Assembly: GCA_041662445.1 (NCBI GenBank) | Contig: JBAZSL010000003.1 | Location: forward strand, 842-64,841 | Direction: 5' to 3' | Source: Candidatus Babeliales bacterium | GTDB lineage: Bacteria; Babelota; Babeliae; Babelales; RVW-14 | DNA: 64,000 nucleotides | Shown here: positions 46,554-48,065 of the stretch, piece by piece | Position numbering within the stretch: the first letter of the stretch is position 1 | How the letters are laid out: each line of letters begins with the position of its first letter | Position numbers and translations under genes: made by a program | Notes under the pieces: model-generated | Told to the model about the DNA's origin: nothing | The model's database searches: none | Seen by the model: only the letters and a program-made list of their open reading frames with translations

Positions 46554-48065
46554 ATGTGTAAGCGTTTATTGGGCGTGGTTACCGTAATAAATTTTTATAT
46601 TTCATCTACTCTCTCTATGCCGCAACAAGATGCTGGTAGCCTCCTGCACGCGGCGGAGAATATCTTAAAAGAGGCAAATTTACTTGTTCAACAAGCAAAT
46701 CAAATCAGAACGATAGGCGCTAATTCCAATGCACATGCTCTTAAGGCCCACGATTTAACGTTAGAGGCATCTAAGCTTCTCAAAGATGTTGTTGAACCTG
46801 GTATTGCAAAAGCGCAAGAGGCGGCGGCACGCCTCGGCCAGGATTATGATCGACTTATTGGCGCACTTAAACAAGAAGTTGCCGTCCAGAAAAAAACTCT
46901 CGAAGATGTTTTTAAAAAATGGCTTACGCCCGAGGACATGATCAAGGTGGAACATGCGAGTGTAGCGAGCGGTGATTATGAGCGTAAGGCTAACATCAAC
47001 GCTCAGGCAGCAAAAGCCGCCAATATCGAGCTTTACAGAGAAAAAGTAAAAAGCAGCATGGAACTCCTTGGCGAGCCTAAATTCATCATGAAAATTGTAG
47101 GGTTCATAGCAGTCATTGTTCTGTGTATTTATGTCATCAAATATGGCATACCTGCCCTCATGAATTATATAACCCGTCCACGTGTTATCAGCGAAACCTC
47201 CAGCAATGGATGGTTGGGATGGTTTACATCGCGACCGAGCACTACGCTTAATGATTTAATTTTTGCACCTGCGTTGCACCATCATCTCCAGAATCTGCTG
47301 GTGCGGGTGCAAACCGCACAGAAATATAATGAAACGCTCCCCAATGTTTTGTTGTATGGCGATCCGGGAACCGGCAAAACTGCTTTTGTCAGAGCATTGG
47401 CGCAAGCGTCAGGCCTTGAGTATGCCTTAACGTCAGGTTCAGAATTCGCAAAAATTACCGATCTCAGTTTGGCGAACGAAGAATTACGTAAACTTTTGAC
47501 GTGGGCAAAGAGAAGTACCAAGGGATTAATTATTTTTATTGATGAGGCTGAGTCCCTATTTGCAAACAGAAAGCTTCCAACAACACCTACAAAAACACAG
47601 GACCTGATCAATACCTTCTTATCGCTCGTTCAAGATCAATCGCAGAAAAAGTTGATGTTTATTCTCGCGACAAACTATCCATTTAAGCTTGACGATGCCG
47701 TTGCTGATCGCATTGGGGAAAGCATTAAGTTCACCTTGCCCGAAGCGTCTGAGCGGGAAAAAATTCTTTTAATGTACCTCATAAAATTTGCGCAAGAGAA
47801 CAAAGAGGCAATTGTTAACTTACCACTAGAACTTAAGCAGACGCTTCCAAAGTACGCCGAAGCGCTCAAAGGCCTTTCGCCCCGTGCTATCAAATTTGTT
47901 GCTGAAGAAATGATTATTAACGCACGGCGCCAAAAATTTATGCAGTTAACTGATGATATTGCGCGAGCTTCCATCGACAAATCGAAACGTAAATTGCAAC
48001 AAACGAAGCGTTGGGAAAAAGAACGTGATGCATGGGTAGGGGTTTTGGCTGCCAACCAGCAGTGA
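46554..48065 (+). CDS. Membrane-anchored AAA+ ATPase with ATAD3-like architecture (N-terminal coiled coil, TM, C-terminal AAA)
   Basis: Walker A [11 protein letters not shown], Walker B [12 protein letters not shown], single TM [27 protein letters not shown] followed by [10 protein letters not shown]. Collinear with my recollection of human ATAD3A (GKPSLVRETS...[12 protein letters not shown]...[10 protein letters not shown]...[10 protein letters not shown]). The ORF opens at TTG 46497; ATG at 46554. Confidence 0.85.
   Translation: [503 protein letters not shown]

Follow-up and report, generated by a model that had tools for sequence, protein, structure and literature searches.

The window, a 64,000-nucleotide stretch of DNA from a Babeliales (Dependentiae/TM6/Babelota) bacterium, carries a gene for an ATAD3-like membrane AAA+ ATPase at 46554..48065 on the plus strand. 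The open reading frame spans 46497-48065 (+) and, read from the ATG at 46554, encodes a protein of 503 aa. GTG 46524 and TTG 46497 are alternative starts, and the identical NCBI entry ("AAA family ATPase [Candidatus Babeliales bacterium]") is called as 513 aa from the GTG start 10 codons upstream. The gene has the same GC content as the window, which also includes two TLC ATP/ADP translocase genes, UvrD, and envelope sugar genes. Homologues are present on contigs labelled Dependentiae, Babeliales, or TM6, complete chromosomes included. Eukaryotic contamination as the source is ruled out by the gene's context and by the large number of contigs labelled Dependentiae; the gene is bacterial and native to Dependentiae.

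The predicted protein consists of a hydrophobic leader, long helices, one membrane segment, and a single AAA domain. Hydropathy identifies the leader at aa 5-23 (...STLS/MPQQ; 46566..46622, +) and one strong transmembrane helix at approximately aa 177-203 (47082..47162, +), with values up to 2.83. In an AlphaFold2 model (mean pLDDT 84.5), helices at residues 2-19, 27-122, 144-173, and 175-207 precede a high-confidence AAA fold. The leader is an export-type signal of bacterial kind rather than the N-terminus of ATAD3, and it probably acts as a signal peptide of the Sec pathway or as a signal anchor; a comparable leader is present in 27 of 31 relatives of the subfamily to which the protein belongs (subfamily A, below), in 41 of 50 of a second subfamily (B), and in 1 of 18 eukaryotic ATAD3 sequences. 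The region between leader and membrane helix (aa 27-173; 46632..47072, +) is predicted to be periplasmic and occupies the position of the ATAD3 coiled coils, although homology between the two is not demonstrable. A sequence-only reading of the locus had described a leader, a single membrane helix, and ~170 aa of coiled-coil-like sequence. Leader and membrane helix stand, as do long helices over ~150 aa, their coiled-coil character being putative.

Beyond the membrane, an 11-residue juxtamembrane motif (47172..47204, +) corresponds to LGKPSLVRETS of ATAD3. Across two bacterial alignments, P209 is invariant, S216 is invariant or nearly so, and E214 and T215 are nearly invariant; the corresponding P282, T288, and S289 are invariant among eukaryotic ATAD3 sequences. 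The AAA ATPase core (47346..47735, +; Pfam PF00004, 88.5 bits) includes Walker A (G269-T276, 47358-47381), a family-specific tryptophan (W317, 47502-47504), Walker B (D330-E331, 47541-47546), sensor-1 (N374, 47673-47675), and a single arginine in the second region of homology (SRH; R386, 47709-47711), all on the plus strand and assigned from invariant columns and a motif table. It is followed by a lid domain and C-terminal helix with W487 (47745..48059, +), in which a family-type sensor-2 arginine, R444, is encoded at 47883-47885 (+). Catalytic residues are all intact, and K275, D330, E331, N374, and R386 are invariant in the bacterial alignments. The protein has the catalytic motifs typical of the family: one SRH arginine (x-R; ADRIG), a sensor-2 motif of the form G-x-S-x-R (GLSPRAI), a tryptophan after helix 2 (LTWAK), and a nonaromatic pore loop 1 (SEFAKIT). 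Sensor-2 R444 is arginine in all 31 members of subfamily A and all 18 eukaryotes but in none of 14 outgroups, and W317 is likewise common to subfamily A and eukaryotes and missing from all 14 outgroups.

Profile and sequence comparisons indicate that this resemblance to ATAD3 is specific. An hhalign comparison of 48 bacterial members with 22 eukaryotic ATAD3 sequences yields a probability of 100, an E value of 2.5e-76, and a score of 594 over 326 columns. The match extends from just before the transmembrane helix to the C-terminus (window aa 165-493 versus ATAD3A 234-577) and covers the membrane helix, juxtamembrane motif, AAA domain, lid, and C-terminal helix. Control comparisons, for which two generic AAA profiles were taken, reach a score of 234 (E ∼1e-31) and align within the AAA domain only. 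In the hhalign match, the bacterial membrane helix falls on ATAD3A aa ∼246-270, which supports homology of the two membrane segments, the 11-residue motif is paired column for column with LGKPSLVRETS, and RWEKER near the C-terminus is paired with RWLKAE. BLASTP against ATAD3A (a query 97-99% identical to great-ape ATAD3A entries) gives 130 bits, an E value of 6e-37, and 31% identity over 229 aa. The sequence-only reading had proposed a homologue of ATAD3 on the basis of likeness in the post-membrane motif and AAA domain; the motif aligns as it suggested, and the blocks it quoted all lie inside the BLASTP alignment. With chimpanzee ATAD3A as phmmer query, a single stretch of the window protein reaches 125 bits and family members checked in genome loci reach 95-223 bits, versus 21-60 bits for generic AAA proteins. 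The best AAA domains of solved structure reach ∼45 bits per domain against the window protein. In an exhaustive search of 1.84 billion representatives, eukaryotic ATAD3 sequences (Fabomonas, Prasinococcus) rank within the top 150, directly after Dependentiae relatives. Judged by sequence, the window protein is a genuine bacterial homologue with a specific affinity to ATAD3, its similarity being far above that of generic AAA proteins.

The N-terminal part differs. The window protein has no match to Pfam ATAD3_N (PF12037) at E <= 1. Relatives P0094 (45 bits), P0099 (31 bits), and P0221 (63 bits) pass the 25-bit threshold of that family, and P0221 is probably eukaryotic. Comparison of the N-terminal helices with the corresponding part of ATAD3 by hhalign detects no homology, with a score of 11, equal to that of a reversed-sequence control. 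The claim of a shared domain order therefore holds as homology from the membrane helix to the C-terminus, whereas the N-terminal helices appear to resemble those of ATAD3 in layout only.

The possibility that the protein is an ordinary bacterial AAA protein (FtsH-, CbbX/SpoVK-, or Cdc48-like), and that its ATAD3 resemblance is a general AAA signature, is very improbable. Pfam reports only a generic AAA domain, and a Foldseek search of the PDB brings up FtsH, FtsHi, proteasome Rpt, and p97 undifferentiated at ∼1e-15; PDB searches gave no ATAD3 chain, however, so the fold search could not report one. FtsH, the top Foldseek match, is also a classic AAA protein anchored in the inner membrane, its N-terminal part being periplasmic and its ATPase cytoplasmic. 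But the window protein lacks the M41 zinc-protease domain (Pfam) and has one internal membrane helix after its leader, whereas FtsH has two N-terminal ones. Scores against NCBIfam models are far under their cut-offs: 53.3 bits versus 600 for FtsH (TIGR01241), 17.4 versus 423 for SpoVK (spore_V_K), and 17.4 versus 467 for EccA. Scores to ATAD3 are two to four times those to any other AAA protein, and the match exceeds the ATPase domain. In a neighbor-joining (distance) tree, ATAD3 and the bacterial family form one clade in 292 of 300 bootstraps (97%), with generic AAA proteins outside it; FtsH itself is absent from the tree. An affiliation with an FtsH- or CbbX-like clade lacking affinity to ATAD3 was thus not seen.

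The family is spread across the phylum Dependentiae, with several old paralogues per genome, and nearly every bacterial member begins with an export-type leader. Scans of genomes and viruses recovered no clear member outside the phylum; IMG/VR viral contigs have generic AAA similarity only (E >= 9e-16) and yield no sign of a giant-virus intermediate. Eukaryotic ATAD3 is present in animals, oomycetes, diatoms, a green alga, Fabomonas, and Plasmodium. The window protein belongs to subfamily A of this large family that diversified across Dependentiae. Members of subfamily B (e.g., P0211/L030, L035, and L047) are from the same phylum, often the same genomes, and have the same layout of leader, helices, membrane segment, and AAA domain. 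Relative to the window protein, they are nearer to eukaryotic ATAD3 (173-223 bits versus 95-173 bits with chimpanzee or Fabomonas ATAD3), retain the motifs LVRESSR and GFSGRD, and usually have an aromatic pore-loop residue. Subfamily A is a derived branch (a distinct nine-residue motif and LFANR). Two bacterial groups, C and B2, have classical AAA states, with RR in the SRH and no sensor-2 arginine, and group C also lacks W317.

Two origins can be considered, both raised by the sequence-only reading: transfer from host to symbiont, or a prokaryotic lineage of the family. We give about even odds to a eukaryote-to-bacterium transfer, in which a Dependentiae ancestor took ATAD3 from its host and added a signal peptide, followed by duplication and fast divergence. 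Outside eukaryotes, the family was recovered almost exclusively from one phylum of obligately eukaryote-associated bacteria, ATAD3 itself is present in very distant eukaryotes, and Dependentiae have many eukaryote-like genes (PMC4378268). This direction predicts that bacterial members are monophyletic, but they are so in 0 of 300 Scoredist bootstraps, 1 of 200 with Kimura distances, and 0 of 200 after the most divergent groups are dropped. Because bacteria are never monophyletic under Scoredist, ATAD3 would nest inside the bacterial radiation, but fast bacterial rates and long-branch attraction could yield a nested topology artificially. Eukaryotes, for their part, are monophyletic at 97% in distance trees. 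The classical AAA states of groups C and B2 would need to be reversals if ATAD3 had come from the host, and the distance within subfamily B (1.24) is about equal to that from B to eukaryotes (1.31). Identity of the window protein to ATAD3 is ∼29-31% in the shared region. Overall, the trees lean toward a prokaryotic lineage over host-to-symbiont transfer. We tentatively raise a fuller version of that lineage as something short of an even chance: ATAD3 is not of eukaryotic origin and was taken, before the last ancestor shared by eukaryotes (LECA), from an intracellular bacterium resembling Dependentiae, where the family had been built stepwise from a classical envelope-anchored AAA protein. If so, the orientation of ATAD3 in mitochondria was inherited from a bacterial protein whose ectodomain lay in the periplasm, whose helix crossed the inner membrane, and whose ATPase faced the cytoplasm.

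Genes downstream of the ATPase are also conserved. The first (48093..48881, +) encodes a leader, a small helical domain (L..I..LL.QG.S.D.I), a membrane helix, a disordered region, and C-terminal motifs (...AK.IGL.P). It begins at an ATG 28 nt from the ATPase gene, or at an alternative TTG (48072) 7 nt past the ATPase stop. The sequence-only reading had singled it out as a potentially conserved neighbor, and positional orthologues with the same architecture (15-23% identity where aligned) are indeed found at nine other loci. It is followed by three tandem paralogues of a second family on the plus strand: 49114..49968, 50119..50925 (likely start ATG 50170), and 50992..51885 (likely start ATG 51049), the latter two also supported as paralogues by an alignment. 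The second paralogue shares 54% identity with the product of the 49000-49968 frame (over 166 aa) and 73% with that of the 50992-51885 frame (over 248 aa). These proteins have a leader, an ∼150-aa domain (IEF..VF.P.RLG..KLYKD..GFH...GYISVNQ..DGEY), and a Gly/Ala-rich hydrophobic C-terminal part. According to tblastn, homologues lie ∼1 kb from the AAA gene, on its downstream side, at loci L004, L005, L007, L009, L010, L016, L017, L021, and L022, and further away at L008. The same two envelope-protein genes follow the AAA gene in at least nine loci, and the AAA gene belongs to a conserved three-gene cluster with two leader-bearing membrane proteins. A terminator-like hairpin (49970-49982) lies downstream of the first paralogue, with no terminator-like sites in the intergenic gaps ahead of it; counts of promoters and terminators are at chance level. 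Neighbor proteins have no match to known domains in Pfam or PHROGs, and a structure model of the second family, from the three window paralogues, has a pLDDT of 29. A cysteine follows the leader in these three copies but is not conserved in orthologues, and the idea that they are lipoproteins was rejected. The surroundings form an island where ankyrin proteins and orphan proteins with leaders abound, with a 1206-aa ankyrin-repeat protein adjoining the ATPase gene, a setting that is also compatible with a role in host interaction.

We suggest, with a probability of roughly 0.7, that the protein belongs, as a bacterial member, to the ATAD3 clade of classic AAA+ ATPases and acts as an inner-membrane, envelope-spanning ATPase. 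The leader would send the N-terminal helical region into the periplasm, and the single transmembrane helix would anchor the protein in the inner membrane with its AAA domain in the cytoplasm, the compartment that contains ATP. With the periplasm equated to the intermembrane space and the cytoplasm to the matrix, this predicted N-out, AAA-cytoplasmic topology would be the bacterial equivalent of the orientation of mitochondrial ATAD3. At the inner membrane, the protein would most likely oligomerize into a ring. Via the membrane helix and periplasmic helices, its hydrolysis of ATP would be linked to organization or remodeling of the cell envelope, a task it would share with the two envelope proteins encoded alongside it; a candidate for the client or adaptor is the cytoplasmic tail of the 48093 product. 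As in eukaryotic ATAD3, the aromatic residue usually found in pore loop 1 is missing, and a scaffold or remodeling role therefore seems more likely than processive unfolding.

It is unlikely, in our estimation, that the protein or some of its paralogues are instead delivered to the host and inserted into host mitochondria as ATAD3 mimics that remodel the organelle. Several copies per genome, as is often the case in effector families, and the adjoining ankyrin-repeat and orphan leader-bearing proteins would fit such a role, and Chromulinavorax destructans, which belongs to the phylum, causes the mitochondrion of its host to expand and to wrap itself around the bacterium (PMC6561590). However, the protein is predicted to be integral to the membrane, with a Sec-type leader and a transmembrane anchor, and the N-terminal region of ATAD3 is not conserved in it. 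Type II systems export soluble periplasmic proteins. The sole secretion system reported for Babela is of this type (PMC4378268), and a phylum-wide family tied to two other membrane proteins resembles envelope housekeeping more than an effector.

Eukaryotic ATAD3 (ATAD3A/B; PF12037 plus PF00004) is an AAA+ protein of the mitochondrial inner membrane, collinear with the window protein from the membrane segment to the C-terminus. The two share the P-x-[LV]-[IV]-x-E-T-S motif, a single AAA domain, a lid, a C-terminal helix with a conserved tryptophan, W317, the sensor-2 arginine in G-x-S-x-R, loss of the first SRH arginine, and a predicted orientation across the inner membrane of a two-membrane envelope. 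They differ in that the window protein is bacterially encoded and has an export leader in place of the Pro-rich ATAD3 N-terminus, and in that the bacterial family numbers several paralogues in each genome and has a conserved bacterial gene neighborhood. In animals and in Plasmodium, ATAD3 is an essential protein, and mutations in it are found in human mitochondrial disease. To our knowledge, its molecular mechanism and origin are unknown and the function of the eukaryotic protein is unsettled. ATAD3 has so far been described only in mitochondria, and a true relative is present in an intracellular Dependentiae bacterium. First thought confined to multicellular eukaryotes, with a study in a unicellular organism first appearing in 2026, ATAD3 is treated as purely eukaryotic in recent literature (PMC13249166). 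Literature searches combining ATAD3 with Dependentiae, prokaryotes, phylogeny, or LECA returned no paper linking it to bacteria. The bacterial family supplies an outgroup for ATAD3 and possibly its source, which bears on bacterial gene contributions to the origin of eukaryotes; its conserved partner genes can hint at protein function, and its simpler, compact proteins suit structural and biochemical studies. The family also marks an envelope system found throughout Dependentiae, a phylum about whose cell biology very little is known.

Expanded AAA families have been described in this phylum. The Babela massiliensis genome encodes a "CDC48-like AAA ATPase" family (COG0464, 13 copies) and an "AAA + Ulp1-like" family, in a paper that makes no mention of ATAD3 (PMC4378268). 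The latter was considered as the same family as that of the window protein and rejected, the sequences being unrelated. As expanded AAA families of the same phylum, those of Babela are comparable to the family described here, and they have atypical signal peptides and membrane-protein genes nearby (PMC4378268).

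From the ATG at 46554, the open reading frame at 46497-48065 (+) is real and encodes a 503-aa AAA+ ATPase. The public entry for this protein, "AAA family ATPase [Candidatus Babeliales bacterium]", has a GTG start and is 10 codons longer. Hydropathy confirms the leader (aa 5-23) and the single, strong transmembrane (TM) helix (aa 177-203) proposed in the sequence-only reading, and the juxtamembrane motif [11 protein letters not shown] lies right after the helix. The AlphaFold2 model, computed from an alignment of 71 relatives (mean pLDDT 84.5), has helices at aa 2-19, 27-122, 144-173, and 175-207, followed by a confident AAA fold. 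The protein retains a full set of catalytic residues, all invariant: K275 (Walker A), D330/E331 (Walker B), N374 (sensor-1), and R386 (Arg finger).

Sequence comparisons indicate that the affinity of this protein to ATAD3 is specific. The ATAD3A sequence used in the sequence-only reading is 97-99% identical to great-ape ATAD3A entries; later comparisons relied on database sequences. BLASTP against ATAD3A gave 130 bits (E = 6e-37, 31% identity over 229 aa) and phmmer with chimpanzee ATAD3A gave 125 bits in one stretch, while the best solved structures (Cdc48, p97, Rix7, and FtsH) reach ∼45 bits per AAA domain with either the window protein or ATAD3A. In hhalign, a profile of 48 bacterial relatives matched one of 22 eukaryotic ATAD3 sequences with a probability of 100 (E = 2.5e-76, 326 columns, score 594), versus a score of 234 (E ∼1e-31) and the ATPase domain only for two generic AAA profiles. 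The match pairs aa 165-493 with ATAD3A aa 234-577 and spans the pre-TM "DPK", TM helix, juxtamembrane motif, linker, AAA core, lid, and C-terminal helix with its Trp. Among the best 150 matches from an exhaustive search of 1.84 billion representatives, ∼45 clusters of bacterial relatives rank first, followed by the ATAD3 proteins of two eukaryotes, Fabomonas (150.8 bits) and Prasinococcus. Single-domain AAA proteins of any other family do not fall between them, and all remaining entries are multidomain proteins with summed scores. Because these comparisons favor ATAD3 and the NCBIfam models for FtsH, SpoVK, and EccA score far under their cut-offs, we rejected an ordinary FtsH- or SpoVK-type AAA protein. 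The protein is a bacterial variant within a known family and does not represent a novel type of system.

The finding holds up and supports the sequence-only reading, with a single correction that concerns the N-terminal part. The ATAD3 layout had been proposed for the whole protein; homology backs it from just before the TM helix to the C-terminus. The N-terminal helical part lies where ATAD3 has its coiled coils, but when these parts were aligned alone, the hhalign score was 11, against 11.7 for a reversed-column control, suggesting that they are analogous and not demonstrably homologous. Pfam recognizes a generic AAA domain alone (aa 265-394, 88.5 bits), and ATAD3_N does not match even at E <= 1. 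Some relatives pass the ATAD3_N threshold: P0094 (45 bits), P0099 (31), and P0221 (63). The last is probably eukaryotic because one sequence from its 90% cluster has SART-1 and eIF2A/GYF genes on its contig. A 773-aa ATAD3 that matches ATAD3_N strongly is encoded at 8001-10322 of JGI contig Ga0335286_1485013 (locus L083), a compact, apparently intron-poor eukaryotic contig with SART-1, HIND, eIF2A/GYF, and ornithine decarboxylase; this protein groups with eukaryotes as their most divergent member and has a weak Peptidase_S74 match at its N-terminus.

The window comes from a bacterium and has the gene content typical of an energy parasite. Its GC content is even, and its genes include UvrD, a periplasmic binding protein, envelope sugar genes, a 1206-aa ankyrin protein, and two adjoining TLC-type ATP/ADP translocase genes (60088-62754, -), the last in keeping with an energy-parasitic life inside host cells. 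When one genome per GTDB species was scanned, 66 family loci were recovered. Twenty-seven are labeled Dependentiae, Babeliales, TM6, Babeliaceae, or Chromulinivoraceae (complete chromosomes included), 38 have uninformative labels ("bacterium" or, in third-party assemblies, "uncultured Pseudomonadota"), and one is on a Parachlamydiales-binned 3.6-kb contig. Weaker matches were all generic AAA proteins (E >= 1e-16), and a scan of IMG/VR found nothing close to the family. Many genomes have three or more paralogues. Those of subfamily A, to which the window protein belongs, number several per genome, at times two or three on one contig (L006/L008 on JBAZAX010000025.1; L005/L007/L018 in CAZMQG01; the L013 contig, CAZBMD010000007.1); a 79,979-bp contig has three. 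Our literature search found no paper connecting ATAD3 with bacteria, and a 2026 paper still treats ATAD3 as eukaryotic, initially believed to be restricted to multicellular organisms of that domain (PMC13249166).

Motifs and phmmer scores against chimpanzee or Fabomonas ATAD3 set apart five groups. Group A (95-173 bits) has PxVISETS, (N/D)RIG, and [9 protein letters not shown]. Group B1 (L027-L047 and others; 173-223 bits) has LVRESSR, SRIHKK, GFSGRD, and an aromatic pore-loop residue, and group B3 (L049, L051, L069, and P0214; 138-178 bits) has LIDETS and DRVGQ. Group B2 (L034, L048, L055-L058, L061, and L062; 118-177 bits) has the Trp and keeps RR, without the sensor-2 Arg. Group C (L060 and L064-L067; 95-125 bits) shows classical AAA states throughout: RRF, Ala or Ser at sensor 2, and no Trp. 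For generic AAA outgroups, the scores are 21-60 bits. Two residues mark the family: Trp at W317 (A, 31/31; B, 44/50; eukaryotes, 18/18; outgroups, 0/14) and Arg at sensor-2 R444 (31/31, 36/50, 18/18, and 0/14, respectively). The sensor-2 Arg is perfectly coupled to loss of the first arginine and the two therefore count as one character. Export-type leaders are found in 27 of 31 A, 41 of 50 B, and one of 18 eukaryotic proteins.

Neighbor-joining trees (Scoredist distances) were computed from a MAFFT alignment of 113 sequences that starts at the juxtamembrane motif and ends at the C-terminus (280 trimmed columns kept). The bacterial family and eukaryotic ATAD3 are joined, apart from 14 generic AAA proteins, in 292 of 300 bootstraps, and eukaryotes are monophyletic in 292 of 300. 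Monophyly of all bacteria was recovered in 0 of 300, in 1 of 200 with Kimura distances, in 0 of 200 after dropping groups C and B2, and in 0 of 200 with only B1/B3, eukaryotes, and outgroups. Which branch comes out as closest to eukaryotes varies (B3, L054, or L053). Mean distances are 1.31 (B to eukaryotes), 1.24 (within B), 1.52 (A to B), and 1.57 (A to eukaryotes), with the outgroup ∼2.1 from each of A, B, and eukaryotes. In these simple distance trees, the eukaryotic ATAD3 sequences form a single tight branch within the Dependentiae radiation, and the grade of motif states polarizes the same way.

Nesting and polarity lean toward transfer from bacterium to eukaryote before the last eukaryotic common ancestor, which we regard as possible but less likely than the reverse. 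Fast-evolving bacterial lineages drawn to the outgroup by long-branch attraction could yield the same topology, leaving room for transfer from host to bacterium, to which we assign a probability of roughly 0.5; more complex histories take up the remainder. The trees are distance-based, were computed from saturated data with long bacterial branches, and have Amoebozoa and Discoba unsampled. The interest lies in the family: because it spans a whole phylum, with many old paralogues, a conserved partner module, members with classical motif states, and ATAD3 nested within it in simple trees, the origin of ATAD3 is directly testable.

The window protein is predicted to be N-out/C-in, with its helices periplasmic and its ATPase cytoplasmic, the bacterial counterpart of the orientation of ATAD3 across intermembrane space, inner membrane, and matrix (PMC13249166). 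It may oligomerize like other classic AAA proteins, and ATP-driven movements passed through the membrane would organize or remodel the envelope. Subfamily A (AKIT) and eukaryotic ATAD3 (APMG or APLG) lack an aromatic residue in pore loop 1, where subfamily B has Phe; this lack argues against processive threading in the former two. A mimic of ATAD3 delivered to the host is the main functional rival, given that Chromulinavorax remodels the host mitochondrion (PMC6561590), but Sec-dependent export, integration in a membrane, and the lack of any known injection system in the phylum (PMC4378268) make it less likely. Family leaders very often finish in [G/A/S]-Met (window aa 19-24, 46608-46625; typically ..SM-Q-Q in subfamily A), in 36% of leaders versus 5% of control windows among ∼200 members (P0001-P0240, L003-L069). 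Such endings may reflect unusual cleavage by signal peptidase, with Met at +1, or else point to alternative starts; Dependentiae signal peptides have been termed "somewhat atypical" (PMC4378268).

Gene order also argues for a role in the bacterial envelope. Directly downstream, a gene from 48072 (TTG, 7 nt past the AAA stop) or 48093 (ATG) to 48881 (+) encodes a leader, small helical domain, TM helix, disordered stretch, and C-terminal ...AK.IGL.P motifs (two in the window copy). Three tandem paralogues of a third family follow (49114-49968, ∼50170-50925, and 51049-51885, +), each with a leader, a conserved ∼150-aa domain, and a Gly/Ala-rich hydrophobic C-terminal part; neither Pfam nor PHROG matches this family. 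In many Dependentiae genomes it is syntenic with the ATAD3-like gene. Its homologues follow the AAA gene on the same strand at a distance of ∼1 kb in L004, L005, L007, L009, L010, L016, L017, L021, and L022, and lie farther away in L008. The 48093 gene had been singled out as a candidate conserved neighbor, and in all nine loci a positional orthologue of the same architecture (15-23% identity) fills the gap. Because the order of these three envelope proteins is kept while AAA proteins are 42-66% identical, a shared envelope function is suggested.

Members of the 48093 family are positional orthologues that evolve fast and separate the AAA gene from the tandem paralogues. Across 49000-51885 (+), the window paralogues are 45-73% identical; a Cys right after their leader (..ACYGPN) is not conserved in orthologues. 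Upstream, two small proteins (41224-42045 and 42067-42720, +) and the N-terminal ∼230 aa of the 1206-aa protein with ankyrin repeats (42710-46330, +) have in common a weakly similar module (24-29% identity) without a Pfam match. Locus L014 is syntenic with the window on this side, with two small genes (1409-2689) directly upstream of its AAA gene and no room for the large ankyrin gene. A long same-strand cluster at 21970-39699 (+), with an epimerase/dehydratase, nucleotidyl transferase, asparagine-synthase-like gene, and amine-oxidase-like flavoprotein, is probably devoted to an envelope polysaccharide and would include novel membrane enzymes; within it, six ORFs in a row (22991-32043, +; 450-600 aa each) lack Pfam matches and have a strongly negative AT skew (-0.2 to -0.3).
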